Of a stretch of DNA of 39,736 nucleotides, positions 1 through 39,736 are shown piece by piece. The notes beneath the pieces are model-generated. The model was not told the DNA's origin and searched no databases. It worked only from the letters and a program-made list of their open reading frames with translations. The DNA is from a phage. How positions within the stretch are numbered: position 1 is the stretch's first letter; the number at the start of each line of letters is the position of its first letter. The position numbers and the translations under genes are program-made. Location: the sequence record PZ379179.1; one strand, 5' to 3'.

Positions 1-161
1 CCTCAAGTCTCCCCATAGGCCCTCTTTAAGTCAAGACCAAAGGCCCTACCCATAGACCTTCGGTCTAAACTTCAGGTCATTGACTCAAGGTTGACCAAAA
101 GTCATGACGATAGGTCTAGGCTATGGCTTAGGGAAGGACGATAGGTAGGGACTATTGGTCT
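1..161. repeat. Left direct terminal repeat (161 bp)
   Basis: Bases 1-161 are identical to 39576-39736 (CCTCAAGTCTCCCCATAGG...GGGACTATTGGTCT); T7-like genomes carry ~160-bp direct terminal repeats. Confidence 0.9.
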
Positions 162-164
162 GTC

Positions 165-340
165 TTTGAGTCTCTATCTGTATAACCATAAGTCACAACC
201 ATAGGTCACAGCCTACCTCTCACAACCATAAGTCATAACCTACAGTCTCACTAACCTACAGTCTCAACCATAAGACACCAACACCTACAGTCATAGACCT
301 ACAGTTAATAGACACAAGGCTATAGACTTAAGGTCTAAGA
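165..340. repeat. Array of short degenerate direct repeats inside the left end
   Basis: Reiterated units such as AACCATAAGTCA and CCTACAGTC (e.g. 195-310); no coding signal. Comparable to T7 end-proximal short repeats. Confidence 0.5.
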
Positions 341-556
341 CATGTTAGTCAAAGACTATATCCTCTTACACCATGGGGCCGACGATAGCTTAATCAATAT
401 TATTTCGAATTACCTATTGACTATAGGTCCAGACTATGGCCTAATAGCTTCCGTCAACACGACACGGCAACAACCGGATAGTGAAGACGCCGGTCCGGTC
501 CGGTTAAGTAGTCAGCCTGTAAGACATACGAACAACAGGCAACCGACAGAAAGTAG

Positions 557-586
557 TTGACAGGCAGTAACGACTTAAAGTAATAT
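557..586 (+). promoter_or_regulatory. Candidate host sigma70 early promoter (A1-like)
   Basis: TTGACA (557-562), 18-bp spacer, TAATAT (581-586); lies upstream of the first early gene, where T7 has its strong E. coli promoters. Confidence 0.45.
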
Positions 587-736
587 GTACCACATCGAAA
601 CAACGGTGATGACCAACACTGAATGGTCTACCTGAAGTCCTCTGACTGAAGGGAATGCTCTTTAACAATCTGGATAAACTCTTAATGTGCGCCGATAGCG
701 ACTAACTACAGGGCCTTTGAGTCTACATCTGAAGGC

Positions 737-756
737 CCTGACTGATAGTCACTAAC
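737..756 (+). promoter_or_regulatory. Conserved early-region box CCTGACTGATAGTCACTAAC, copy 1
   Basis: 20-nt box also at 1054-1073 and 1782-1801, each preceded by ACTACAGG and 8-29 nt upstream of an early gene start; candidate RNase III processing or regulatory site. Confidence 0.35.
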
Positions 757-772
757 TTAAAGGATGGACACT

Positions 773-1018
773 ATGAAACACTTAAGCACAATCACTAATC
801 GCAATGAAGTATTCGTGAACACTAAAGGTTATGCGTGGATTCAGCTTAAAGAGGTGACAGGAGCGCGTCACCGTGTGGTAGTGCGCAAGGTATCAAGCAA
901 GCAGTTCAGCAACTACAGCGTCGATACTGTGCGTATAGACAACGAGACATACCTGATAGACTCGCAGATAACCGTGAGTCCTACAGTGGGCGTCTCAGCT
1001 CCTTATTTCGCTAACTGA
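773..1018 (+). CDS. Hypothetical early protein, first gene of the genome (81 aa)
   Basis: Track ORF 764..1018; the AGGA overlaps the ATG at 764, so the ATG at 773 (8 nt downstream) is the better start. No recognisable domain. Confidence 0.55.
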   Translation: MKHLSTITNRNEVFVNTKGYAWIQLKEVTGARHRVVVRKVSSKQFSNYSVDTVRIDNETYLIDSQITVSPTVGVSAPYFAN

Positions 1019-1053
1019 GAGTGATTAACTACAGGTCGTTAGACTGATAGCGG

Positions 1054-1073
1054 CCTGACTGATAGTCACTAAC
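1054..1073 (+). promoter_or_regulatory. Conserved early-region box, copy 2
   Basis: Identical 20-mer CCTGACTGATAGTCACTAAC, 29 nt upstream of the Ocr-like gene start. Confidence 0.35.
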
Positions 1074-1101
1074 ACATACTTAACTTTGAGAGGATATAAC
1101 T

Positions 1102-1605
1102 ATGGAACGTAATGCTAACGCATTCTATGAGCTGCTGGCTGCAACCGTTGAGGCATTTATCGAGCGTATTCAGTACGACCACCTGACTCAAGATGACGAC
1201 TACAGCGCTGCGCTGCATGAGGTCGTAGACGGTCAGGTTCCACACTATTACCACGAGATTTTTACGGTGATGGCTGCTGATGGTATAGACAACGAGTTCG
1301 AAGACTCTGGGATGATACCTGAAACCAAGGACGTAACGCGTATCCTACAAGCTCGCATCTATGAGGCACTTTATAACGACGTGTCTAATAGCTTGGATGT
1401 AGTCTGGTTTGAGGATGAAGAGGCAGACGAAGAGGATGAATATTGGGTAGTTGACGCTAAAACAGGCGCAATAATTGTGCAAGCTGTAGCTCTTGAGGTC
1501 GCTACTGCATGTGCCAAGGTCAACTATGTGATAGGTCGCCACCTTCAGGTGGAAGACATCAATGATAACGTAGTGTTTGACCCTGCTGCTGAGGACTGCG
1601 AGTGA
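1102..1605 (+). CDS. ocr: Ocr-like anti-restriction DNA-mimic protein (T7 gp0.3 homolog) with C-terminal extension
   Basis: 167 aa; [43 protein letters not shown] matches recalled T7 Ocr ([43 protein letters not shown]). Acidic run [10 protein letters not shown], then ~50 extra residues absent from the 117-aa T7 protein. GAGAGGA RBS 7 nt upstream. Confidence 0.85.
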   Translation: [167 protein letters not shown]

Positions 1606-1781
1606 TGGTAACTTATGGCCTCTGCCAGCACCACGTCACTAACGCCCGGCTTATGGTCAAGACCGGGCAGTTAGACCACGATTGGGCTATGCGTCTCTTG
1701 AAAGTGGTCTACAGGAGACGCAAGCGTATACACGACAGTTTACACGCTAAGTGACAGACTACAGGTCATCAATGCTGGTGG

Positions 1782-1801
1782 CCTGACTGATAGTCATTAA
1801 C
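1782..1801 (+). promoter_or_regulatory. Conserved early-region box, copy 3 (CCTGACTGATAGTCATTAAC)
   Basis: One mismatch to copies 1 and 2; 8 nt upstream of the ATG at 1809. Confidence 0.35.
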
Positions 1802-1808
1802 AACTGAG

Positions 1809-2045
1809 ATGGAAGATATGAACACAATCACTGGTGCCATAACCAAAGGTTTTCGAGCAATTTTCGGTGAAACGCAAGAAGTATGCACCAATCATAAATT
1901 CGTACTTTCTTGCGTAGCAGGTGACGAGTTTGACGGGTTCGATAAACTGGTGGTTTGCGACCATTGCGGACAAGAGGCTATCCAACACTCAAACGGTAAA
2001 TTTGAATTAATAGACGATAGCCTTACAGAAGGAGACGGCGAGTAA
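1809..2045 (+). CDS. Hypothetical early protein, Cys-containing (78 aa)
   Basis: Track ORF with ATG start; contains CDHCG and other Cys residues (possible metal site). Sits where T7 has genes 0.4-0.6; no similarity recognised. Confidence 0.5.
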   Translation: MEDMNTITGAITKGFRAIFGETQEVCTNHKFVLSCVAGDEFDGFDKLVVCDHCGQEAIQHSNGKFELIDDSLTEGDGE

Positions 2046-2177
2046 CCTAAATAAACAGGAGAGAACCAAATCATAGCTTGACCATAACACTGACGTGATG
2101 GTACTGAGTGATAGACGAGAGGTCATCGACTGATAGGTGGCCTCAAAGATTACCACTTACATTGATAGGATTTAACT

Positions 2178-2282
2178 ATGAGCACTGCAATCATCTGGAC
2201 TATCTCAGGCTTCGTAGCGTGGGGAATGTTTACTCTAGTCTGCAAACTACCGGTCCTTACTCAACTGTTATGGGGCTTATGA
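2178..2282 (+). CDS. Small hydrophobic peptide (34 aa), candidate membrane protein
   Basis: ATG at 2178 with TAGGA RBS 7 nt upstream; MSTAIIWTISGFVAWGMFTLVCKLPVLTQLLWGL is one predicted TM helix. Below the track size cut-off. Confidence 0.35.
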   Translation: MSTAIIWTISGFVAWGMFTLVCKLPVLTQLLWGL

Positions 2283-2482
2283 CTATGGGTCTTGCACTAT
2301 TGATAGCCATAGGCTATGGACTTATCGCCTACGTGCTGGTGAGAGACATCAACAAATCGCGTAAAGTCTACAAATTCAAATATGTACGTCTGGGTAGCTG
2401 GACTGTACGTCAACCTAACGGACGATTCATGCGTAACTTAGCGAACGTCTGGGATATAGCAACACTTGGGAGCAAACTGTAA
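2270..2482 (+). CDS. Small membrane protein (about 65-70 aa), start uncertain
   Basis: The track ORF 2108..2482 opens with GTG and no RBS. In-frame ATGs at 2270, 2279 and 2285 (the last is 3 nt after the stop of the 2178 ORF) precede a hydrophobic segment LALLIAIGYGLIAYVLV. Stop overlaps the next ATG. Confidence 0.35.
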   Translation: MGLMTMGLALLIAIGYGLIAYVLVRDINKSRKVYKFKYVRLGSWTVRQPNGRFMRNLANVWDIATLGSKL

Positions 2483-2808
2483 TGAACAAGTCATACGGGA
2501 TTAATCTGGTACACTCTATGGACGCAGACATGCAAATGTTAAGCCTACTGGCTACCGGGTATCGTCACGGAACGTCAAGTCACTCCGCACGTCAACAGCA
2601 GGAGCGGGACCGGGTACTGCAAGCAAGACTCCGGGCTGAGGGCCATAAGTCCGAACTAATGTGTCTGGCGTATGGTGGACGACCAATCACTGACGATGGT
2701 AAACTTTTAGTCTCAGGCTGGAAGGCGATAGACCAACGGTCAACCATCAAGCACACGACTCATGGTGACTTCAGTCATCTCCACGCTAACCCGCTGATAT
2801 GCAAGTAA
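2482..2808 (+). CDS. Hypothetical early protein (108 aa)
   Basis: ATG overlaps the upstream stop (TAATG), suggesting translational coupling. Last ORF before the RNA polymerase; no recognisable domain and no kinase motifs. Confidence 0.5.
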   Translation: MNKSYGINLVHSMDADMQMLSLLATGYRHGTSSHSARQQQERDRVLQARLRAEGHKSELMCLAYGGRPITDDGKLLVSGWKAIDQRSTIKHTTHGDFSHLHANPLICK

Positions 2809-2813
2809 TTCTG

Positions 2814-2836
2814 ACTTAACTATCACTATAGGACTC
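2814..2836 (+). promoter_or_regulatory. Phage RNAP promoter upstream of the RNAP gene
   Basis: TTAACTATCACTATAGGA matches the genome-wide promoter consensus; predicted +1 G at 2831. Followed by direct repeats AAGTGAAAGAC (x2) before the RNAP start. Confidence 0.6.
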
Positions 2837-2905
2837 AAGGTCTAAGACTCCAAGTGAAAGACCAAAGAGACTTTAAGTGAAAGACTAATAACAAGGACTT
2901 TAAGT

Positions 2906-5587
2906 ATGAGCGTCATCTCTATTGACAAGCACGACTTCTCTGATGTATCGAACGCCATTGAGCCGTTTAACCTACTGGCTGACCACTACGGGCAAGACCT
3001 TGCAGTCAAACAGCTTCAGCTTGAGCACGAGGCATACACTGAAGGCGAGCGACGTTTCATCAAGAACCTTGAGAGACAGACTGAGCGAGGGGAACTGGCA
3101 GACAATCAGGTCGCCAAGCCTTTGATGCAGACTCTGGTCCCTAAGATTGCGCAAGCCGTCAAGGAGTGGCATGAAGGTCCAGACGGGAAGCTGTCAACCT
3201 CTCGTCCGAGCGTAGCGTTCACCATGTTGAGCACTGAAGAGAAGGCCGTAAAGGTCCGCTCTTTGCGCATCTCCTGCGAGTCTGCTGCGGTTATCATACT
3301 GAAGGTCATACTCTCCAAGCTGGTCAAGCCTGAAGGGATACCGATTACACCGATGGCCTCAGCGATAGGTCGCACACTTGAGGACGAAATCCGCTTCGGT
3401 CGCATCCGTGACAAGGAGAAAGAGCACTTCAAGAAGGCGATAGCTGATAACCTGAATAAGCGGGCCGGGGCGTCCTACAAGAAAGCCTACATGCAAGCGG
3501 TCGAGGCATCCATGCTGGAGCAAGGCCAACTGGAAGATGCGTGGGGGACTTGGAGTCCGACCGAGGCTGTCCACGTTGGAATCAAGATGCTGGAGATTGT
3601 CATCCAGTCCACACAACTGGTCGAGCTTAAGCGTTACGGTGCTGGCAATGCAGCGGCTGACGTTGAGATGGTCCACCTGTCAGACTTCTGGGTCAAGAAG
3701 ATGGCACAACGAGGATTCAGCCTTGCGGGTATAGCTCCAGTCTACCAGCCTTGCGTCGTTCCACCTAAGCCGTGGACTGGTGTCGTAGGCGGTGGGTACT
3801 GGGCCAAAGGACGCAGACCATTACCACTGATTCGCTTAGGGTCTAAGTCTGCGGTAGCACGCTACGAAGACGTGTATATGCCTGAAGTCTATGACGCTGT
3901 GAACATCATTCAGAATACACCTTGGAAAGTGAACAAGAAGGTTCTGGAAGTGGTGAACATGGTCGAGAAGCTGAACAACACGCCTATTGATGACATCCCT
4001 CAGATGGAACCGCTGAAGCCTGAGGACTATGCGGGTGAGACTGAAGAAGAACTCAAGGCATGGAAGAAGGCTGCTGCTGGTATCTATCGCCGCGAGAAGG
4101 CCAGACAGTCACGAAGATTGTCACTGAGCTTTATCGTCAACCAAGCGAACAAGTTCTCTCAGTTCAAGGCCATCTGGTTCCCGTATAACATGGACTGGCG
4201 CGGTCGCGTCTACGCTGTGCCGATGTTCAACCCTCAGGGTAACGACATGCAAAAGGGTCTTCTGACTCTGGCAGTCGGTAAGCCTATTGGTGCTGATGGT
4301 TTCAAATGGCTGAAGGTCCACGGTGCAAACTGCGCGGGTGTCGATAAAGTCACCTTCGAGGAGCGTATCAAGTGGGTGGAAGATAACCACGAAAACATCA
4401 TGGCTGCTGCCAAGGCACCGATGGATAGCATTGAGTGGTGGGGCAAGTTAGACTCTCCGTTCTGCTTCCTAGCGTTCTGCTTCGAGTATGCTGGCGTAAT
4501 GCACCACGGCTTGTCTTACTCCTGCTCGCTGCCGATAGCGTTCGATGGGTCCTGCTCTGGGATTCAGCACTTCAGCGCTATGCTTCGCGACCACATCGGT
4601 GGACATGCAGTAAACCTGACGCCATCCGGTAAGGTACAAGACATCTACCGAATTGTGTCTGACCGCATTGAGGAGCAGCTTAAAGTCCTGCTGATTAACG
4701 GTACTGACAACGAGATGGTCACTCACGAGGATAAGAAAACTGGTGAGATTACCGAACGTATCAAGCTGGGGACACGAGAGCTGGCCCGTCAGTGGCTGAC
4801 ATACGGTATGTCACGCAAGGTCACTAAGCGTTCAGTCATGACTCTGGCATACGGGTCGAAAGAGTACGGCTTCGCAGACCAAGTTTACGAGGACATCGTG
4901 ATGCCAGCGATTGACTCAGGGTATGGCGCTATGTTCACCGAGCCAAGCCAAGCGTCTCGATTCATGGCTAAGATGATTTGGGAAGCTGTGAGTGTGACCG
5001 TAGTTGCTGCGGTTGACGCGATGAAGTGGCTTCAAGGTGCTGCCAAGCTGCTGGCTGCTGAAGTGAAGGACAAGAAGACTGGCGAAATCCTGAAGCCATG
5101 CCTTCCGGTACACTGGGTAACACCTGATGGTTTCCCTGTCTGGCAGGAATACCGCAAGAAGGATACCACTCGTCTGAACCTGATGTTCTTAGGGTCATTC
5201 AACCTTCAGCCTACAGTCAACAAAGGAACGAAGAAAGAGCTTGACAAGCACAAGCAGGAGTCAGGCATTAGCCCTAACTTCGTCCACTCACAAGATGGTA
5301 GCCACCTGCGGAAGACTGTAGTCCACACTCACCGCAAGTATGGCGTGATGTCATTCGCAGTGATTCACGATAGCTTCGGGACCATCCCTGCTGACGCTGA
5401 GTATCTGTTCCGTGGTGTCCGTGAGACGATGGTCGAGACATACCGCGATAATGATGTGCTGCTTGACTTCTACGAGCAGTTCGAATACCAGCTTCATGAA
5501 AGTCAGCGCGACAAGTTGCCTGAGCTTCCGAAGAAAGGTAAACTGAATATCGAAGACATCTTGTCTTCAGACTTTGCATTCGCTTAA
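2906..5587 (+). CDS. Single-subunit DNA-directed RNA polymerase (T7 gene 1 homolog)
   Basis: 893 aa; collinear with recalled T7 RNAP, including AFDGSCSGIQHFSAMLRD, VIHDSFGTIPAD and the C-terminal DFAFA. AAGGA RBS 8 nt upstream. Confidence 0.97.
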   Translation: MSVISIDKHDFSDVSNAIEPFNLLADHYGQDLAVKQLQLEHEAYTEGERRFIKNLERQTERGELADNQVAKPLMQTLVPKIAQAVKEWHEGPDGKLSTSRPSVAFTMLSTEEKAVKVRSLRISCESAAVIILKVILSKLVKPEGIPITPMASAIGRTLEDEIRFGRIRDKEKEHFKKAIADNLNKRAGASYKKAYMQAVEASMLEQGQLEDAWGTWSPTEAVHVGIKMLEIVIQSTQLVELKRYGAGNAAADVEMVHLSDFWVKKMAQRGFSLAGIAPVYQPCVVPPKPWTGVVGGGYWAKGRRPLPLIRLGSKSAVARYEDVYMPEVYDAVNIIQNTPWKVNKKVLEVVNMVEKLNNTPIDDIPQMEPLKPEDYAGETEEELKAWKKAAAGIYRREKARQSRRLSLSFIVNQANKFSQFKAIWFPYNMDWRGRVYAVPMFNPQGNDMQKGLLTLAVGKPIGADGFKWLKVHGANCAGVDKVTFEERIKWVEDNHENIMAAAKAPMDSIEWWGKLDSPFCFLAFCFEYAGVMHHGLSYSCSLPIAFDGSCSGIQHFSAMLRDHIGGHAVNLTPSGKVQDIYRIVSDRIEEQLKVLLINGTDNEMVTHEDKKTGEITERIKLGTRELARQWLTYGMSRKVTKRSVMTLAYGSKEYGFADQVYEDIVMPAIDSGYGAMFTEPSQASRFMAKMIWEAVSVTVVAAVDAMKWLQGAAKLLAAEVKDKKTGEILKPCLPVHWVTPDGFPVWQEYRKKDTTRLNLMFLGSFNLQPTVNKGTKKELDKHKQESGISPNFVHSQDGSHLRKTVVHTHRKYGVMSFAVIHDSFGTIPADAEYLFRGVRETMVETYRDNDVLLDFYEQFEYQLHESQRDKLPELPKKGKLNIEDILSSDFAFA

Positions 5588-5602
5588 CAGGAGGAGAAGT
5601 AT

Positions 5603-5833
5603 ATGTCAATGAAACTTGTAGCACACAACAGGACATACAACGATGGGTCGGGACGTTGCCACGTAGAGCTGACTTATAAGGATTTAATCATTCTCCGAGA
5701 CAGATTACAGTCGGGTGTGACTGGGTGGATTCAACCTAACGAGTACAACCTTATAGCTTCGATTGATGAAGTTCTTAACGCGTGGATGGAAGACGAGCGC
5801 ATTCAGTATCCGTCATTCCCTCTAATTAGATAA
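5603..5833 (+). CDS. Hypothetical protein downstream of RNAP (76 aa)
   Basis: ATG with GGAGGAG RBS; no T7 counterpart at this position that I recognise. Confidence 0.55.
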   Translation: MSMKLVAHNRTYNDGSGRCHVELTYKDLIILRDRLQSGVTGWIQPNEYNLIASIDEVLNAWMEDERIQYPSFPLIR

Positions 5834-5843
5834 GGAGAGAGTT

Positions 5844-6059
5844 ATGAAATTTGCACACAAGCATACTGGCGTTAATGGTGGGACTCAAATCGTGACCGTA
5901 ACAGAACACAACGGCAAGGGTCTGGTGAAGACCACGGTCATCCCTACCGAGATGTCCAAGCAGCTTAACATCCCGTTCAAGACTCTTGTATATCTGGTCG
6001 AGTCCAGCCACGAGAAGTACCTGAAGGACGCAGTGTCCAAGCTGGAGCAGGCCAAATGA
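5844..6059 (+). CDS. Hypothetical protein (71 aa)
   Basis: ATG with AAGGAGA RBS; phage-typical codon usage. Confidence 0.55.
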   Translation: MKFAHKHTGVNGGTQIVTVTEHNGKGLVKTTVIPTEMSKQLNIPFKTLVYLVESSHEKYLKDAVSKLEQAK

Positions 6060-6124
6060 CAGACATACAGTTACTGGCCCTGTGGCTGGGAGCACTCGCA
6101 GTATTCACTTTAATCCAACGCAGA

Positions 6125-6147
6125 AGAGGTTAACCCTAAACTATCAC
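6125..6147 (+). promoter_or_regulatory. Phage RNAP promoter (phi1.1-like)
   Basis: CCTAAACTATCACTATAGGA; predicted +1 G at 6142. Confidence 0.7.
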
Positions 6148-6200
6148 TATAGGATTAGACTCAAGGTCATGACTCAAAGTCGTGGCCTTCATGATTAACC
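6144..6200 (+). ncRNA. Candidate RNase III processing hairpin (R1.1-like)
   Basis: GATTAGACTCAAGGTCATGACTCAAAGTCGTGGCCTTCATGATTAACC; related copies at 13375-13417 and 36131-36171. Resembles the T7 R1.1 site as I recall it (ACTCAAGGTCATTCGCAAGAGTGGCCTTTATGATTGACC). Confidence 0.45.
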
Positions 6201-6230
6201 CTAAATAAACACTACTGGAGATTTAACCGT

Positions 6231-6410
6231 ATGTATCAGAACACTATCAACTTCGAGCGCATCCGCGAACGTCAGCAGACTGAAGGTTACATCCCTAAGG
6301 GCCGCAAGCTGAACAAGACTAAACGTGGAGGAGGTATCAAAGGTGCTTTCCGTAACGCTGAAGGTAAAGACTCTATGGTTAACCAAGAGAAATACTTCGT
6401 AGGAGCATAA
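6231..6410 (+). CDS. Gene 1.1-like small basic protein (59 aa)
   Basis: GRKLNKTKR matches recalled T7 gp1.1; below the track size cut-off, found by manual translation. Confidence 0.65.
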   Translation: MYQNTINFERIRERQQTEGYIPKGRKLNKTKRGGGIKGAFRNAEGKDSMVNQEKYFVGA

Positions 6411-6414
6411 CCAA

Positions 6415-6678
6415 ATGGGCCGACTTTATAGTGGCAACCTCAACGATTTCAAAGCAGCGTGTCACAGGCTTTATCAGTTAGACTTCGCTGTCATATCTCA
6501 GGAGTTTCAAGACTATACGTCACGCCAAGAGTGTATGAAACTCAGGGTGGAGGACCGAGCTGGTAACATCTTCGCGCTTGAGACCTTCGCACACTACGAT
6601 GAAGACGTGCTGTATAATACCGCAACCGACTACCTCAACGGTCTCGCTGACCATCTCGACACATGGAGAAAAGAATAA
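6415..6678 (+). CDS. Gene 1.2-like inhibitor of host dGTPase (87 aa)
   Basis: MGRLYSGNLNDFKAA...LRVEDRAGN...HYDEDVLYN closely matches recalled T7 gp1.2 (MGRLYSGNLAAFKAA...LRIEDRSGN...HHDEDVLFN). AGGAG RBS. Confidence 0.85.
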   Translation: MGRLYSGNLNDFKAACHRLYQLDFAVISQEFQDYTSRQECMKLRVEDRAGNIFALETFAHYDEDVLYNTATDYLNGLADHLDTWRKE

Positions 6679-7706
6679 TGACAACTATCAAAACTAACCC
6701 TCACCGCGCTGTAGATTACTCTGAGTCTGGAATTAAGAAGGCACTGGAAGCAGCCGGGTCTCTGGAAGCTGAAGTGAAGTACGATGGTGTGCGCCTGAAC
6801 CTCCTGGTCCTGCGTGAAGGTGAGACCTACTGGCTTAGCCGCGAGTCGAAACCTCTACCAGCCTTGGAGTGGATGAACTCTGAGTTAGGTAATGCGTGGA
6901 CCCAAGCTGACTGGCGATGGTTCCTGCGTCAATCCGGCTACGAAGGTGTGGGCATGATGATTGATGGCGAGGTCATGGTCAAAGGTGTAGACTTCAACAC
7001 CTCCTCAGGTCTCATCCGAACGAAGTGGCTCAAGCCTAACAACGAGGAGTTCGCTGAATACTATTCGCCGGCGACTGGTGGAAAGAAGCTCCCGTTCTGG
7101 GGATCCCGGTCACGACTTCAGGTTGTGGTCTACGGTGTCATTGACATGACAACCATTGCTGACCCGAAAGCCGAAGGTCCTATCCATAGCGTAACCCGCC
7201 TGAAGGCCGAAGCTATCGTCCCTCTTCTCCAGAAATACTTCCCGGAAATCGACTGGGTTCTGTCTGAGAGTCATACAGTGTTCAACCTTGAGTCTCTTCG
7301 TGATTTGTACGAGGAGAAGCGAGCAGATGGACATGAAGGTCTGGTAGTCAAGGACCCACTGGGCAAATACAAGCGTGGTAAGAAGTCTGGTATGTGGAAG
7401 ATGAAGCCGAGTGAAGAGGCAGATGGTCACGTTGTTCGCCCGGTGTGGGGAACAGAAGGCCTAGCCAACGAAGGCATGGTCATCGGCTTTGACGTTATGC
7501 TCGAGAACGGGATGGAGGTCTCCGCAACTAACATTAGTCGCGCCCTTATGTCCGAGTTCACGGAGAACGTTAAGTCAGACCCTGACTACTACAAAGGGTG
7601 GGCTTGCCAGATTACCTACATGGAGGAGACACCAGATGGCTCATTGCGACACCCCTCGTTCTACCAGTGGCGTGGAACTGAGGATAATCCTACAGTCAAG
7701 ATTTAA
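6678..7706 (+). CDS. ATP-dependent DNA ligase (T7 gene 1.3 homolog)
   Basis: Adenylation motif KYDGVR; MTTIKTNP...SYWLSRESK...HEGLVVKDP...KRGKKSGMWKMKP...WACQITYMEETPDGSLRHPSF collinear with T7 ligase. Track ORF begins at 6663; the ATG at 6678 overlaps the gene 1.2 stop. Confidence 0.93.
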   Translation: MTTIKTNPHRAVDYSESGIKKALEAAGSLEAEVKYDGVRLNLLVLREGETYWLSRESKPLPALEWMNSELGNAWTQADWRWFLRQSGYEGVGMMIDGEVMVKGVDFNTSSGLIRTKWLKPNNEEFAEYYSPATGGKKLPFWGSRSRLQVVVYGVIDMTTIADPKAEGPIHSVTRLKAEAIVPLLQKYFPEIDWVLSESHTVFNLESLRDLYEEKRADGHEGLVVKDPLGKYKRGKKSGMWKMKPSEEADGHVVRPVWGTEGLANEGMVIGFDVMLENGMEVSATNISRALMSEFTENVKSDPDYYKGWACQITYMEETPDGSLRHPSFYQWRGTEDNPTVKI

Positions 7707-7707
7707 A

Positions 7708-8118
7708 GTGGACGAAAGGTCGGCCTCCGGGCTGGCACTCCACTCTGGACGAAAGGTAGGAAGTAAGAAGAAGTCCGGCTATTGGACGATAAACGTCAGG
7801 ACACCGTGGGGCCGAAAGCATCTACAGGTTCATAGGGTAATATGGGAGATGACACACGGTCCCATACCAGACGGCATGGAGATTGACCACATTGACCGGA
7901 ACCCTTCTAATAACAGGCTGTCCAACCTGCGACTGGTGACTCACTCCGAGAACAACCAGAACAAAGGACAGATGTCCACCAACACTACCGGAGAACGTCA
8001 CATCTCAAAGGTGAAAGGTCGAGAGCTTTACTGTATCAAGAAGGTGGTCAACGGAGAGCGCTTGGTCCTATATGCCAAGACCATAGCCGAGGCAGTAGCC
8101 TTAAGAGATTCATTATAA
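7708..8118 (+). CDS. HNH homing-type endonuclease (copy A)
   Basis: HNH core [46 protein letters not shown]. The track ORF starts inside the ligase gene; alignment with the paralog at 36668 puts the N-terminus at GTG 7708, directly after the ligase stop. No in-frame ATG is available. Confidence 0.7.
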   Translation: MDERSASGLALHSGRKVGSKKKSGYWTINVRTPWGRKHLQVHRVIWEMTHGPIPDGMEIDHIDRNPSNNRLSNLRLVTHSENNQNKGQMSTNTTGERHISKVKGRELYCIKKVVNGERLVLYAKTIAEAVALRDSL

Positions 8119-8123
8119 TGTCA

Positions 8124-8156
8124 ACCCAGTGGTCTTATGACTGCTGGGTTTCTTTG
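8124..8156 (+). terminator. Rho-independent terminator (TE-like early terminator)
   Basis: ACCCAGTGG-loop-CTGCTGGGT hairpin followed by TTTCTTTGCG, resembling the T7 TE tail TTTCTGCG; sits after the ligase/HNH unit. Confidence 0.6.
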
Positions 8157-8177
8157 CGTACGGGCCACCAGCTAGAC

Positions 8178-8200
8178 CCTAAGCTATCACTATAGGACAA
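8178..8200 (+). promoter_or_regulatory. Phage RNAP promoter
   Basis: CCTAAGCTATCACTATAGGACAA; predicted +1 G at 8195. Confidence 0.65.
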
Positions 8201-8226
8201 CCCTAACCGACCAAAGGAGAAACCTT

Positions 8227-8481
8227 ATGTCTAAAAACTTAATGTTCAACCGATTTACTCGAAGCTTCCACCTGTCGCATAGCCCATTCAGCTTCCATAA
8301 ATCTAATCAACCATTACCCCGCTTTGGTAAGACAGTGGCTCTGTCTCCCACAGTTCATGCGCTAGTCACCCGCAAGTCTATGCTGAAGGCTATGGATAAA
8401 GAACAAGTCGATGTACCTGTTGTCGTTACAAAATGGCCTCGCATTAAGCTGGCCCTTCTGGTAATTAAGGAGGTGTTTTGA
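8227..8481 (+). CDS. Hypothetical protein (84 aa), gene 1.6 position
   Basis: ATG with GGAG RBS 7 nt upstream; no recognisable domain. Confidence 0.5.
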   Translation: MSKNLMFNRFTRSFHLSHSPFSFHKSNQPLPRFGKTVALSPTVHALVTRKSMLKAMDKEQVDVPVVVTKWPRIKLALLVIKEVF

Positions 8482-8819
8482 TGGCATATTGTGATAGCAC
8501 CACATACTGTGAAGCATGTAATGGTGATGACCGCTTCCCACACGTTGGTAAACTTGTAGGTAACAAGCTGCAAGAAATTGATGGTGTACGCAAGCCATCC
8601 CACTATCAGGTCTTTGATGGCGTGGAATCCATTGAGATTATCGCACGGTCAATGACTGTGAGTGAGTTCCGTGGGTTCTGCATGGGTAACGTCCTGAAGT
8701 ATCGACTCCGGGCTGGTAAGAAGTCAGAGCTGGCAACTATGGAGAAGGACCTGAACAAAGCAGCCTTCTATCAGGAGCTATTCGACCTGCACAAAGGTAA
8801 GTGCTATGACTCCGAGTAA
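8481..8819 (+). CDS. DUF3310 / gp1.7-like protein (putative nucleotide kinase family)
   Basis: 112 aa from the ATG at 8481 (the track ORF opens at TTG 8478); AAGGAGGTG RBS. Motif FCMGNVLKYRLRAGKK resembles the DUF3310 signature associated with T7 gp1.7. Confidence 0.55.
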   Translation: MAYCDSTTYCEACNGDDRFPHVGKLVGNKLQEIDGVRKPSHYQVFDGVESIEIIARSMTVSEFRGFCMGNVLKYRLRAGKKSELATMEKDLNKAAFYQELFDLHKGKCYDSE

Positions 8820-11228: not shown

Positions 11229-11426
11229 ATGACCACTATTACAAAAGAGCGACTACTGACAATCAAGCAGTGGCGCGAAACATACGGACATGGTAGCAAC
11301 GTTGTACTGCCAGCAGAAGAAGCGGAAGAACTGGAACGAATTGCACTTGCGTCACTGGAAGCTGGCATGAAGGCACGTCAAGCTGACACCAAAGCTGACC
11401 AGTTGGCTCAGTTCTTCAAAGCCTAA
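11229..11426 (+). CDS. Hypothetical accessory protein (65 aa)
   Basis: ATG with AAGGA RBS 8 nt upstream; the stop codon is part of the following promoter. No recognisable domain. Confidence 0.55.
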   Translation: MTTITKERLLTIKQWRETYGHGSNVVLPAEEAEELERIALASLEAGMKARQADTKADQLAQFFKA

Positions 11427-11444
11427 ACTATCACCTTAGGGATT
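11422..11444 (+). promoter_or_regulatory. Phage RNAP promoter, variant (CACCTTAGGG)
   Basis: CCTAAACTATCACCTTAGGGATT; upstream of the primase-helicase gene. Confidence 0.5.
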
Positions 11445-11491
11445 GGACCTTGAGTCCTTTCCCTTTGTTCGCATTTGTGAGTAAGGAGTGA

Positions 11492-13195
<1,704 letters not shown>

Positions 13196-13374
13196 GGAGG
13201 AGTACATTGCTAAGAAAACTTAAAGCTCGATACCATAGGTTCATGTACAAATGGTGGAGTGATGAAGCAACCTGCCTGTCCAACATTCTGGGAGACCAGA
13301 GGTTCGACTCTAAGGCATGGAAGAAAGCTAACCGGAAGTTTATGTACCACTTCTTGCGTACAGACTTCTAGGTC

Positions 13375-13417
13375 TAGACTCAAGGTCATTCATAGCGAGT
13401 GGCCTTTATGATTAGAC
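13375..13417 (+). ncRNA. Candidate RNase III processing hairpin
   Basis: TAGACTCAAGGTCATTCATAGCGAGTGGCCTTTATGATTAGAC, closely resembling the recalled T7 R1.1 site; lies between the gene 4 and gene 5 homologs. Confidence 0.45.
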
Positions 13418-13435
13418 TAAAGCGGAGGATTAACC

Positions 13436-15607
13436 ATGTTTGACCTTAAGAGTATCTGGGGTTCTGACATCGAGACCAACGGTCTCCTTGATACAGTCTC
13501 CCAGTTTCACTGTGGGGTCCTGATTAACGCCGAGTCGAATGAGACCCTTAAGTATGGGGTAGCTCCGATGGTCGGTATCGTCGGTGGCTTCAAAGAGTAT
13601 GTGCAGAAGGTGGAAGAGATTGCCGCATCACCTGATGGTATGCTGGTATTCCACAACGGTATCAACTATGACGTCCCGGCTATTGACAAGCTGAAGCGTC
13701 TGTACTTCGGGAAACGCTTTAACTTCCCGAAACACAAGATGATTGATACCTTGGTGCTGGGTCGCTTGATGTATCCCAACATTAAGTTCTCAGACATGGG
13801 CGCGGTGAAAGCTGGTCGTCTGCCTCCTAAGATGATGGGACGCCAGTCTCTTGAGGCTTGGGGCTATCGTCTCGGTGAGATGAAAGGTGAGTACAAACAC
13901 GATTACGTTGCCAAATGCAAGGCTGAAGGTATTGAATATAAGGCTGGTGACGAATGGTTGTTCCCATCTCAGGAGATGCTGGACTATAACGTTCAAGACG
14001 TTGTGGTCACACTGGCGTTGTTCAAGAAGTTCCTGACTGACAAGTATTACTTCCAGTCTGAACAGTTCGCTTTCGACCAGATTTATGCGTTGCGTCTGGA
14101 ACATGATGCTGCGTGGACCTGTGCGAAGATGGAACGTAACGGCTATCCGATGAACACCGAGATGGTCGAAGGCTTATATCGTGAACTAACCGTCAAACGT
14201 GCAGAGCTACTGGACAAGCTGCGCTCTACTTTCGGTAGCTGGTATGCACCAAAGGGAGGCAAGGAGTTCTTCAGGCATCCACGGACAGGTAAGGATCTTC
14301 CGAAGTATCCGAGAGTCGTGTATCCCAAGGTCGGTGGCATCTTTAAGAAGCCTAAGAACAAAGCTCAACGCTTAGGTCTTGAACCTTGTGAACGCGATAC
14401 GCGAGACACGATGGAGGGAGCACCATTCACGCCAATCACTTACGTTGAGTTTAATCCGGGAAGCGGAGACCACTTAGCGAAAGTCCTGATGGAGCGTGGC
14501 TGGGAGCCTGTGGACTTTACTGACACCGGGAAACCTGTAGTCGATGACGAGACGTTGGAACACGTTAAGTTACCAGACGCAGAGGCTCAGGCTTGCGTAG
14601 AGCTGGTCCGTGAGTATCTGGTAGTCCAGAAGCGCATCGGTCAGGCGGCTGAAGGTAAGAACGCATGGTTGAAACTTGTAGGTCCAGACGGACGTATGCA
14701 CGGCTCAATAAACCCATGCGGGGCAGTAACCGGACGTGCGACCCATAGTTCACCAAACATGGCTCAGGTCCCGGCTAACGGTGCTCCATATGGTGAGACT
14801 TGCCGTGGTGCTTTCGGTGCAGCGTGGAACAAGAAGGACGGTAAGCCAGACCCTTGGATTCAAGTTGGTGTGGATGCCTCAGGTCTTGAGCTTCGTTGTC
14901 TTGGGAACAGAGCGGCTCCGTTTGATGGTGGTGCATATGCGAAGACTGTGGTAGAAGGTGACATCCACTGGGCCAACGCAGTAAACGCTGGGTTAGCACC
15001 TAACGTCCAACGCGATAAGTCTAACCACGACCATGAGGCTTTCCGTAACAACGCTAAGACGTTCATCTACGCGTTCCTGTATGGTGCAGGGGCCGCTAAG
15101 ATTGGACTGATAGTAGGCGGTGGTAAGAAGGAAGGTTCAGCTCTGATGAAGAAATTCATTGAGGGTACACCAGCCATCAAGGACCTCAGGGAAGCTGTGA
15201 GTAATACGTTAATCTCAGACTCTAAGTGGGTGGACGGAGAGAACATCGTTAAGTGGAAACGCCGTTGGCTGCGTGGACTTGATGGTCGCCGCATACACAT
15301 CCGGTCGCCACACTCAGCACTTAACGCCCTACTTCAGGGTGATGGTGCGGTTGTCTGTAAGCACTGGATGGTACTGACTGAGAAGAAACTTGAAGAGGCT
15401 GGTTACGGTAACGGATGGGACGGCGACTTTGCGCTAATGGCTTGGATTCACGATGAATTGCAGATAGCGTGCCGTACTCAGGAGATAGCAGAAGATGTCG
15501 TCCGTATTGCTCAAGAGGCGATGCGCGAGGTCGGACGCTTCTATAACTTCAAGTGTGAACTTGATACGGAGGGTAAGATTGGACCAACGTGGAAAGAGTG
15601 TCATTGA
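13436..15607 (+). CDS. DNA polymerase (T7 gene 5 homolog, family A)
   Basis: 723 aa; exonuclease and polymerase motifs (DIETNGL, DASGLELRCL, IHDELQ); GCGGAGGAT RBS. Confidence 0.96.
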   Translation: MFDLKSIWGSDIETNGLLDTVSQFHCGVLINAESNETLKYGVAPMVGIVGGFKEYVQKVEEIAASPDGMLVFHNGINYDVPAIDKLKRLYFGKRFNFPKHKMIDTLVLGRLMYPNIKFSDMGAVKAGRLPPKMMGRQSLEAWGYRLGEMKGEYKHDYVAKCKAEGIEYKAGDEWLFPSQEMLDYNVQDVVVTLALFKKFLTDKYYFQSEQFAFDQIYALRLEHDAAWTCAKMERNGYPMNTEMVEGLYRELTVKRAELLDKLRSTFGSWYAPKGGKEFFRHPRTGKDLPKYPRVVYPKVGGIFKKPKNKAQRLGLEPCERDTRDTMEGAPFTPITYVEFNPGSGDHLAKVLMERGWEPVDFTDTGKPVVDDETLEHVKLPDAEAQACVELVREYLVVQKRIGQAAEGKNAWLKLVGPDGRMHGSINPCGAVTGRATHSSPNMAQVPANGAPYGETCRGAFGAAWNKKDGKPDPWIQVGVDASGLELRCLGNRAAPFDGGAYAKTVVEGDIHWANAVNAGLAPNVQRDKSNHDHEAFRNNAKTFIYAFLYGAGAAKIGLIVGGGKKEGSALMKKFIEGTPAIKDLREAVSNTLISDSKWVDGENIVKWKRRWLRGLDGRRIHIRSPHSALNALLQGDGAVVCKHWMVLTEKKLEEAGYGNGWDGDFALMAWIHDELQIACRTQEIAEDVVRIAQEAMREVGRFYNFKCELDTEGKIGPTWKECH

Positions 15608-17399: not shown

Positions 17400-17422
17400 A
17401 CTAAACTATCACTATAGGGACT
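17400..17422 (+). promoter_or_regulatory. Phage RNAP promoter (phi6.5-like)
   Basis: ACTAAACTATCACTATAGGGACT; predicted +1 G at 17417. Confidence 0.75.
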
Positions 17423-17483
17423 TTAGGACCTAAGATATGACTATAAGATAGACTTTAGTCTTAACTTAAAGAGGAGATTCAAG

Positions 17484-21222: not shown

Positions 21223-21245
21223 ACTAAACTATCACTATAGGGAGA
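21223..21245 (+). promoter_or_regulatory. Phage RNAP promoter (phi10-like, full consensus)
   Basis: CTAAACTATCACTATAGGGAGA, including the GGGAGA initiation region typical of strong late promoters; upstream of the capsid gene. Confidence 0.85.
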
Positions 21246-21347
21246 CCAAGAGAAAGACTCAAGGTTTCCCTATTACTTCAGTCCATACGGATTGGGCATA
21301 CAGTAAGTAATAAACTTTATCTTTCAATTGAATAGGAGAATTATCAT

Positions 21348-22397: not shown

Positions 22398-22660
22398 CGA
22401 CCTTTAAGGCCCTCTCTACAGAGGGTCCTACCTTAGAGACGTATAGTTCTACGGTGGGAACCAGCCTGAAGGTTGACTTCCCTGAGCTTTCAGATGTGAC
22501 CGATTGGTCGCTGCTTGAGGTGACTACGCCTGATGGTGTTAGCTACTCCCGTAGAACCAACAGTCTCTACTTCAAGGCCACCTCTGGCGTGGAAGGTCTG
22601 GTGATTGTTGGGTATGACGGTACGCCTGTGCGTTCCTTCAACGTATCTTTCACAAACTAA
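21348..22660 (+). CDS. Minor capsid protein 10B, predicted -1 ribosomal frameshift product
   Basis: Slippery G_GTT_TTC at 22370-22376 lies 7 codons before the 10A stop. The -1 frame is open from there to 22660 (about 94 extra residues), analogous to T7 10A/10B. Confidence 0.5.
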
Positions 22661-22664
22661 TTGA

Positions 22665-22703
22665 AACCCCTTGGGTGCCTTCGGGTGCTTGAGGGGTTTT
22701 TTG
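22665..22703 (+). terminator. Tphi-like late terminator
   Basis: AAACCCCTTGGGTGCCTTCGGGTGCTTGAGGGGTTTTTTG: GC-rich hairpin plus U-tract, closely resembling the T7 Tphi terminator downstream of gene 10. Confidence 0.85.
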
Positions 22704-25979: not shown

Positions 25980-26003
25980 CTTATTGAAGGGCCTATAGAT
26001 TTA

Positions 26004-26026
26004 CCTTAACTATCACTATAGGGACT
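26004..26026 (+). promoter_or_regulatory. Phage RNAP promoter (phi13-like)
   Basis: CTTAACTATCACTATAGGGACT; predicted +1 G at 26021. Confidence 0.75.
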
Positions 26027-26055
26027 ATAGGCCCTTAAGGTTATAAGGAGACTTT

Positions 26056-35673: not shown

Positions 35674-35868
35674 ATGATTGAGTTAGACTTCAAGAATGAG
35701 GTCCTCAAAGCCTCGCCTATCGTCGGGACCGCTGCGGCTGATGGTGCCAGTCGGTTCTTCTTTGGGCTAACGCTCAACGAATGGTTCTACGTCGCTGCTA
35801 TCGCGTACACCGTGGTGCAGATTGGCGTCCTAATTTACAAGACGATTAAGAGCGGAGGTAAGACATGA
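35674..35868 (+). CDS. Class II holin (T7 gp17.5 homolog)
   Basis: 64 aa; FFGLTLNEWFYVAAIAYTVVQIG matches T7 holin FFGLSLNEWFYVAAIAYTVVQIG. Confidence 0.9.
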   Translation: MIELDFKNEVLKASPIVGTAAADGASRFFFGLTLNEWFYVAAIAYTVVQIGVLIYKTIKSGGKT

Positions 35869-36128
35869 CGCAGATGGACTTAGAGAAGTTCCTGTTAATG
35901 CTGGACACAGAACGTGCTAGACTAATGCTGCAAGACCTGCGGGATGACTCTAAGCGTTCGCCCCAGCTCTACAACGCCATTGAGAAGCTACTGGCTCGTC
36001 ACAACTTCGTGCTAAGCAAGGTGTCTGTTGACGAGAAGACGCTCGCTGATATGGAGGCCCTGAACGCAGAGTACGATAAGGTGCTCTCCGCTACGGAAGA
36101 TAATGACACAGGGTATGGTGTTCAATAA
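35865..36128 (+). CDS. Terminase small subunit / DNA maturation protein A (gp18-like)
   Basis: 87 aa ORF between holin and spanin with overlapping start; assigned by position and size. Confidence 0.65.
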   Translation: MTQMDLEKFLLMLDTERARLMLQDLRDDSKRSPQLYNAIEKLLARHNFVLSKVSVDEKTLADMEALNAEYDKVLSATEDNDTGYGVQ

Positions 36129-36130
36129 GT

Positions 36131-36171
36131 GTTAGACTCAAGGTCATCGTCAGGTGGCCTTTATGGTTAAC
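36131..36171 (+). ncRNA. Candidate RNase III processing hairpin (R18.5-like)
   Basis: GTTAGACTCAAGGTCATCGTCAGGTGGCCTTTATGGTTAAC, the third copy of the element at 6144 and 13375; at the position of T7 R18.5. Confidence 0.45.
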
Positions 36172-36224
36172 ACTAACTAGTGGAGGAGACTCTACGTGAA
36201 ATCTGATAAACCGGGAGGGCAACT

Positions 36225-36671
36225 ATGCTCGAATTTTTAAAGAGAGCGGCTCCGTGGTTACTTTCAGCAGTGATATTTGCTGGTGGCTACCACACCGCTA
36301 ACAATAAGTGGGAGGCTAAGGTCAATGCAGAATACACCTCGAATCTTAAGGCATCGGAGGATACAAGACTTGCTGTCCAAGCTGAAGTCAACAAAGTGTC
36401 CAAACGGTTTCAGGACGAAATGTCCTCGCTGGAAGGCAGCACTGATAGGATTATTGCTGACCTTCAGTCTGACAATAAGCGGTTGCGCATCCGAGTCAAA
36501 CCTACGAGTGGAACCACGCAAAGTGACGGTCGATGCGTCATTGATGGTTACGCCGAACTTGACGAACGAGATGCTAAACGTCTTATCGCCATCGGAGTGA
36601 AAGGAGACAAATGGATTAAGGCGCTTCAGGACACTGTGAGAGCCTTGCAGCAAGATAAGGAGGCCCAATGA
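36225..36671 (+). CDS. i-spanin, Rz-like (T7 gp18.5 homolog)
   Basis: 148 aa; MLEFLKRAAPWLL...LEGSTDRIIADLQSDNKRLRIRVK...LDERDAKRLIA...GDKWIKALQDTVRALQ matches T7 gp18.5; N-terminal TM segment. Confidence 0.9.
   Translation: MLEFLKRAAPWLLSAVIFAGGYHTANNKWEAKVNAEYTSNLKASEDTRLAVQAEVNKVSKRFQDEMSSLEGSTDRIIADLQSDNKRLRIRVKPTSGTTQSDGRCVIDGYAELDERDAKRLIAIGVKGDKWIKALQDTVRALQQDKEAQ
36325..36600 (+). CDS. o-spanin, Rz1-like lipoprotein embedded in the +1 frame of the i-spanin gene
   Basis: Track ORF 36277..36600 in an alternative frame inside gp18.5; contains a lipobox-like LTISGC after a hydrophobic stretch LIGLLLTFS. Start uncertain (first ATG at 36325). Confidence 0.45.
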   Translation: MQNTPRILRHRRIQDLLSKLKSTKCPNGFRTKCPRWKAALIGLLLTFSLTISGCASESNLRVEPRKVTVDASLMVTPNLTNEMLNVLSPSE

Positions 36672-39352: not shown

Positions 39353-39397
39353 GACCTAAGGTCAGTTCATAGCTGACGCTACTCTACTGACCTTAGC
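39353..39397. repeat. Inverted repeat / hairpin (10-bp stem) downstream of the last gene
   Basis: CCTAAGGTCAG (39355-39365) pairs with CTGACCTTAG (39387-39396) around a 21-nt loop; no U-tract follows, so it is not a classic terminator. Confidence 0.4.
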
Positions 39398-39575: not shown

Positions 39576-39736
39576 CCTCAAGTCTCCCCATAGGCCCTCT
39601 TTAAGTCAAGACCAAAGGCCCTACCCATAGACCTTCGGTCTAAACTTCAGGTCATTGACTCAAGGTTGACCAAAAGTCATGACGATAGGTCTAGGCTATG
39701 GCTTAGGGAAGGACGATAGGTAGGGACTATTGGTCT
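39576..39736. repeat. Right direct terminal repeat (161 bp)
   Basis: Identical to bases 1-161. Confidence 0.9.

Follow-up and report, generated by a model that had tools for sequence, protein, structure and literature searches.

Repeated T7-type hairpins in the genome of a K1F-like phage: probable processing signals for host RNase III

The cutting of polycistronic RNAs by host RNase III in T7-type phages has been known since the 1970s–80s. In the phage genome analyzed here—sequence record PZ379179.1, whose whole stretch of 39,736 nucleotides is referred to as the window—the 14-mer AGACTCAAGGTCAT occurs exactly three times (6157, 13376, and 36134, all on the + strand), and so does GTGGCCTTYATGRTTA (6182, 13399, and 36154). 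This three-copy repeat is not a matter of chance. What, then, are these elements, do they act as RNA or as DNA, and how many of them does the genome hold? A sequence-only reading had proposed three copies of an RNase III-type hairpin at 6144-6200, 13375-13417, and 36131-36171. The motif indeed lies inside each of these intervals, the first of which starts 13 nt too early, with the +1 region of a phage promoter inside it. The three copies are real as well, but they undercount the element, which is present at least seven times in the genome.

The genome is that of a complete linear K1F-like phage (Kayfunavirus, Studiervirinae), T7-like and transcribed from left to right, as follows from an exact 161-bp direct terminal repeat (1-161 = 39576-39736) together with 11 copies of the promoter core AACTATCACTATAGG, where 1 is expected by chance. 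The 1.2 kb around the first site (5800-7000) share 99.7% identity with LM33_P1 and 93.7% with K1F, both members of the genus Kayfunavirus. The three repeated hairpins and the promoter at the first of them are:

6130..6154, + strand: phage RNA polymerase promoter, phi1.1 equivalent; carries the exact 15-mer common to the 11 promoter copies of the genome
6149..6206, + strand: site 1, R1.1 equivalent; covariance model 60.8 bits, E = 1.4e-11
13368..13423, + strand: site 2, R4.7 equivalent; covariance model 60.8 bits, fold z = -4.4
36126..36178, + strand: site 3, R18.5 equivalent; covariance model 68.8 bits, E = 1.8e-13, z = -6.0

RNA structure prediction bears out the irregular hairpin that had been expected, and covariation—discussed below—backs it further. 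Around cores at 6157-6197, 13376-13414, and 36134-36169, each of the three sites shows, in the MFE and the centroid structure alike, a lower and an upper stem separated by a 4x5 internal loop; the free energies range from -19.4 to -21.1 kcal/mol and the z-scores from -4.4 to -6.0 (site 1: -20.2 kcal/mol, z = -4.5). None of 200 shuffles is as stable, and the covariance-model E-values of the three lie at about 1e-11 to 1e-13.

The sites differ in their upper stems. Site 1 contains a 13-nt tandem duplication at 6158-6183 (GACTCAAGGTCAT / GACTCAAAGTCGT)—kept in K1F, EcoDS1, and ASO2B—which extends its upper stem to 12 bp. Site 3 has an upper stem of 9 bp only, closed by a GUCA loop, and this short apex is common to LM33_P1. 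In an alignment of ten Kayfunavirus orthologs, site 3 shows no change in its lower stem, in the loop, or at the foot of its upper stem; the apex varies in length with its pairing kept.

The close resemblance to T7 R1.1 that had been proposed holds against the actual T7 sequence. For site 2 the cores are identical: 14 of 14 positions in the 5' core ACTCAAGGTCATTC and 17 of 17 in the 3' core GAGTGGCCTTTATGATT agree, as do the entire upper stem (AAGGUCAUUC/GAGUGGCCUU) and the internal loop (ACUC/UAUGA). A BLAST search with site 2 additionally gives a direct match to T7 R0.5 at 92.5% identity. Sites 1 and 3 have the first 8 bp of the R1.1 upper stem and the internal loop in common with it, and carry G-C or C-G at the distal-box position instead of U-A; site 3 is in addition 1 bp shorter. 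More generally, T7 R0.5, R1.1, R4.7, and R18.5 bear the same core ACUCAAGGUC...GUGGCCUUUAUGAUU as the sites of this genome and fold into the same shape, and the T7 sites agree with the present ones in architecture, strand, and gene neighborhood. Lower stems and apical loops, on the other hand, are of other sequence than in T7, with compensation, and neither the 13-nt duplication and 12-bp upper stem of site 1 nor the 9-bp upper stem of site 3 has its like there.

The genomic positions parallel those of T7 R1.1, R4.7, and R18.5, as had been claimed: the ORF map, PHROG identities, and the T3 annotation place the sites between genes syntenic with those that flank the T7 and T3 sites. Site 1 lies 5' of a gene 1.1 homolog, ORF 6231-6410, which matches T7 gp1.1 by BLASTP at E = 7e-6, has the KGRKLNKTKR motif in common with it, and whose ortholog is called gp1.1 in the EcoDS1 record and 1.15 in the K1F record. 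Directly downstream of site 2 follows the DNA polymerase gene (13436-15607), the homolog of gene 5. Whereas T7 has gene 4.7 between R4.7 and gene 5, no gene intervenes here, exactly as in T3, whose R4.7 lies directly 5' of gene 5. Site 3 is flanked by the small-terminase gene 18 (35865-36128) and an Rz-like (spanin) gene at 36225-36671, the gene 18.5 homolog, an arrangement also seen in T7 and T3. The records of two phages, Providencia phage EPr2 and Citrobacter phage CR44b, show HNH or other endonuclease genes immediately beside the site 2 homolog in place of the DNA polymerase gene, which suggests that mobile nuclease genes have inserted at this junction.

Site 1 is closely interwoven with promoter sequences. 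It begins within the +1 region of the promoter at 6130-6154 (+1 at ~6152), and the initiating region of this promoter supplies the 5' arm of its lower stem; the homolog of this promoter in ASO2B carries a "promoter" annotation, and site and promoter together are invariant in K1F, EcoDS1, and ASO2B. T7 R1.1 likewise follows right after a phage promoter, phi1.1A, and T3 R1.1 overlaps the phi1.1 promoter. Directly after site 1, at 6195-6219, lies a degenerate copy of the promoter with 80% identity to 6130-6154, whose 5' part supplies the 3' arm of the site 1 lower stem. Site 1 hence stands between promoter-like sequences, similar to T7 R1.1 between phi1.1A and phi1.1B. Judged by its sequence, the degenerate copy is probably inactive, since TATAGG has changed to TACTGG and its middle is variable among kayfunaviruses.

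The number of sites becomes apparent from a covariance model built from 12 sequences, namely five sites of this genome and seven of T7. Their alignment shows invariant AGG...GTG..CT blocks and compensatory changes in 10 of 18 pairs, with a consensus structure in which a 4x5 loop separates a lower stem of 8 bp from an upper stem of 10 bp. Searched against the genome, the model returns seven sites, all on the + strand—the three above and four in the early region:

695..757, + strand: early site of the T7 R1-like subclass ACUACAGG...CCUGACUGAUAGUCAC; model 35.3 bits, E = 1.6e-5, untrained
1018..1074, + strand: early site, R0.3 equivalent; model 51.3 bits, E = 2.5e-9, untrained; z = -4.8
1748..1802, + strand: early site; model 60.7 bits, in the training set; fold z = -2.8
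2105..2161, + strand: early site; model 57.1 bits, in the training set; fold z = -2.6

Three of the four early sites form a subclass of their own, ACUACAGG...CCUGACUGAUAGUCAC, which is similar to T7 R1 and sets this genome apart from T3. The site at 695-757 (MFE -25.6 kcal/mol, z = -5.9) lies 5' of ORF 764-1018, a homolog of K1F gp0.2; the one at 1018-1074 precedes an Ocr-like gene (1102-1605, PHROG match), the one at 1748-1802 an ORF at 1809-2045, and the one at 2105-2161 an ATG at 2178. This last start codon opens a 34-codon ORF (2178-2282) for a very hydrophobic peptide, MSTAIIWTISGFVAWGMFTLVCKLPVLTQLLWGL. All seven sites are intergenic or touch only the stop end of the upstream ORF, and each lies 20-60 nt 5' of a start codon.

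How well the model recognizes such sites can be appreciated from genomes outside its training. It detects T7 R6.5, on which it had not been trained, and in T3 (NC_003298)—absent from training altogether—it matches eight of the 10 stem-loops that carry the label "RNase III recognition site", with ends that lie no more than a few nt from the annotated ones, and has no further match in that genome. R3.8 and R13, the two left undetected, have an atypical structure. Among the IMG/VR loci carrying the seed pattern (927 kb in total), which are for the most part chance matches, the model hits are confined to contigs of ~38-45 kb, the size of T7-like genomes, and one fragment of 4.6 kb. Pseudomonas phage gh-1 (NC_004665) bears putative RNase III sites R1-R13 of the same annotation kind—intergenic stem-loops, often beside promoters—but these have no sequence relationship to the present sites, and the model finds no match in gh-1 even at E = 1 with filters off. 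Among the tested genomes, the conserved core is confined to four enterobacterial genera (T7, T3, K11, and Kayfunavirus). A search of the whole genome against Rfam 15 is without a match, both at the gathering threshold and at E <= 0.5.

The base pairs are kept through compensatory changes, between sites as well as between phages. Across 77 sites from at least eleven phages (T7, T3, K11, K1F, EcoDS1, this genome, and T7-like contigs of IMG/VR), 95.1% of cells are paired, against 76% in shuffles and 31-49% in slid controls, and double changes occur in 16 of 18 pairs; none of 500 shuffles reaches the observed values, although the pair counts lean toward structure because the alignment was fitted to the model.

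The level on which the element acts is indicated by its strand asymmetry. In five of the seven sites, the + strand has about double the folding stability of its reverse complement—an advantage that stems from G-U pairs—while the sites at 695 and 6149 show no such asymmetry. This asymmetry of the five sites points to a function in RNA. An action as DNA, in the form of cruciforms or of recombination or replication signals, might be thought of for site 1, which occupies the place where T7 has its primary replication origin region and T3 a rep_origin just 5' of R1.1; the hairpin is moreover a conserved island amid diverged flanks in distant phages, and HNH genes have inserted beside the site 2 homolog in two phages. 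Such an action is nevertheless highly improbable, and we reject it on the grounds of strand asymmetry: on the opposite strand the conserved G-U pairs of the helices become C-A mismatches, five of the seven sites reach only about half their folding stability as reverse complements, the covariance model scores ~12 bits on the minus strand against 60-69 bits on the plus strand, and all seven copies lie on the transcribed strand.

An RNA hairpin between genes might also be an intrinsic transcription terminator, and precisely this label is attached to the site 1 homolog in ASO2B (MZ726794, 6255-6291, "rho-independent terminator", a WebGeSTer prediction). The element is a stable, GC-containing hairpin, which suits the label. 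However, none of the three hairpins is followed by a T-run, whereas the genuine terminators TE (~8120-8160) and Tphi (~22660-22700) of this genome do carry them. A terminator scan of 1-8500 calls neither the site at 6149 nor any of the four early sites, and site 1 stands directly after a promoter and ahead of genes that need to be expressed. Termination has hence scarcely any probability left and is rejected for want of a T-run, and the label in ASO2B is very likely a misannotation.

We conclude that the hairpins are very probably T7-type processing signals for host RNase III—unannotated members of a known and ordinary family of T7-like phages. Their membership in the sequence family, their fold and covariation, their synteny, and the strand specificity of five of the seven are direct observations; from these we infer cleavage by RNase III and what would follow from it. 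T7 R1.1 is a biochemically defined substrate of the Escherichia coli enzyme, studied in the Nicholson laboratory (PMC1540722, PMC4858673), and internal loops allow only one strand to be cut and leave behind hairpins that protect 3' ends (PMC1540722). For a minimal substrate, reactivity depends strongly on helix length and on the sequence of the distal box.

Carried over to this genome, the process would run as follows. The sites would be transcribed within long polycistronic RNAs, the early ones made by E. coli RNA polymerase and the remaining ones by the phage RNA polymerase from its 11 promoters. Each element forms a hairpin of ~55 nt with an 8-bp lower stem of free sequence, the conserved asymmetric loop ACUC/UAUGA, and an upper stem of 9-12 bp (AAGGUCAU.../...GUGGCCUU), whose stacked helices a dimer of host RNase III would bind, by homology with T7 R1.1. 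Within the internal loop, only the 3' side would be cut, at a single phosphodiester: CCUU(U/C)AU↓G(A/G)UUA (the arrow marks the cut). The upstream message would thereby keep a stable 3' hairpin as protection from 3' exonucleases, and the downstream message would receive a new 5' end 20-60 nt ahead of its start codon.

The cut positions rest on T7, whose RNase III cleavage coordinates, with the sites R0.5, R1.1, R4.7, and R18.5, were reportedly given by Dunn and Studier in 1983. The feature tables of T7 V01146 and NC_001604 as displayed are without RNase III features. Placed on the T7 sequence, seven of the coordinates come to lie at one and the same homologous position, which serves as a consistency check only. 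This position is just after the last U of the internal loop, behind the conserved (G)GCC(Y)U arm; in R1.1, for instance, the cut reads CCUUUAU↓GAU. Transferred to the present sites, the cut is predicted after U6192 in site 1 (CCUUCAU↓GAUUA), 39 nt 5' of the gene 1.1 homolog; after U13409 in site 2, 27 nt 5' of gene 5; and after U36164 in site 3 (CCUUUAU↓GGUUA), where the G-G after the cut is common to T7 R18.5. For the early sites, the predicted cuts fall after 743, 1060, 1788, and 2147, the last of them 31 nt ahead of the start of the hydrophobic 34-codon ORF.

Could the hairpins be structured RNAs that are cleaved poorly or not at all, acting as stabilizers, translational modulators, or noncatalytic binding sites for RNase III or another protein? 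The shortened upper stem of site 3, which is without the canonical distal box, would fit this, as both features affect the reactivity of the minimal substrate, and RNase III, with its loose sequence rules, would not seem to need so strict a conservation of the ~30-nt core. Yet site 2 equals the cleaved T7 R1.1 substrate over its upper stem and internal loop, sites 1 and 3 have the first 8 bp and the internal loop of R1.1, and cleavage sites are on record at the equivalent positions of T7 and T3. Taken together, we regard a general lack of cleavage as quite improbable. At the level of a single site, the matter differs: site 3 may be cut poorly in this lineage, as its upper stem of 9 bp is 1 bp shorter than that of R1.1 and has no U-A/U-G distal box. 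A further difference to T7, which also counts against the RNase III reading, concerns the kinase encoded by gene 0.7, which stimulates RNase III in that phage (PMC4858673); no homolog of it is found in this genome (tblastn best E = 1.3).

Beyond the seven model sites, two hairpins resemble atypical sites of T7 and T3:

11435..11466, + strand: candidate of the atypical R3.8 type; 3' side UUUCCCUUUGUUCGCAUU equal to T7 R3.8; fold z = -3.0
25987..26036, + strand: candidate of the atypical R13/R6.5 type; perfect 12-bp stem AAGGGCCUAUAG/CUAUAGGCCCUU; fold z = -2.7

The first, which has no covariance-model match, is a probable R3.8-type site when its sequence is compared with T7 and with the annotated R3.8 of T3. 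It lies 5' of gene 4 (11495), and its 5' arm is the transcribed start of a variant promoter at 11426-11440. This gene 4 promoter departs from the consensus, reading ATCACCTTAGG against ATCACTATAGG. The second is a possible site of the R13/R6.5 type: its stem encloses the phi13 promoter (26008-26022) 5' of gene 13 (26056), just as R13 and R6.5 enclose promoters in T3, and the stretch is identical in EcoDS1. Other sites of T7 and T3 have no counterpart here. No credible R1 equivalent is found 5' of gene 1 (2826-2900, fold z = 0.16) and no credible R6.5 equivalent at the phi6.5 promoter (17416-17480, fold z = 0.34), in which the genome differs from T3. An R1.3 site, present in both T7 and T3, is impossible because genes 1.2 and 1.3 overlap in this genome.

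The strict conservation of the core deserves attention of its own. The site 2 region has BLAST matches in 295 phage records, and distant phages match the query by the hairpin alone (query nt 26-73 or 26-65); in these relatives, the ~30-nt core is an island whose flanks are too diverged for BLAST to detect. Since the core is nearly unchanged over four genera—much stricter than the rules of RNase III require—a second role comes into consideration: the hairpins might be recognized by a phage or host factor other than RNase III, or might serve as homology patches for module swapping and as landing sites for homing endonucleases, HNH genes being present straight behind the site 2 homolog in EPr2 and CR44b. 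We consider such a second role unlikely. If the homology-patch version were true, coinfecting T7-like phages would swap gene modules at the hairpins.

For the biology of the phage, the RNase III reading changes little, as the genome follows the known T7 pattern. Its use is rather in annotation. The records of the kayfunaviruses K1F, EcoDS1, and ASO2B, seen in full or in part, and the feature listings under the BLAST matches mark no RNase III sites, and a literature search for such sites in K1F or Kayfunavirus, whose reach did not extend to the K1F genome paper, returned no relevant paper. A small covariance model could annotate these sites across enterobacterial T7-like phages, given how cleanly it separates true sites from background, and the predicted cuts would provide exact expected mRNA ends for the engineering or profiling of K1F-like therapeutic phages.

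Further structures and repeated words appear elsewhere in the genome. The phi10 transcript opens with a strong hairpin at 21237-21273 (GGGAGACC...GGUUUCCC; -27.5 kcal/mol and z = -5.3 for 21235-21300), which we take to be similar to the stem-loop at the 5' end of the gene 10 leader in T7. An 11-bp hairpin (CCUAAGGUCAGU...ACUGACCUUAGC region, z = -2.6) is located at 39356-39396, past the last promoter (38966) and ahead of the right terminal repeat. The word GACTTTARG has six occurrences against 0.67 expected—2869, 2896, 17419, 23475, and 39411 on the + strand and 4679 on the - strand—with copies close to the right end and just past two promoters, those at 2818 and 17404. Lastly, words resembling AGAC-N-AAGGTC are enriched, with 32 matches at <=3 mismatches to the 14-mer of the three repeated hairpins against 4.6 expected.
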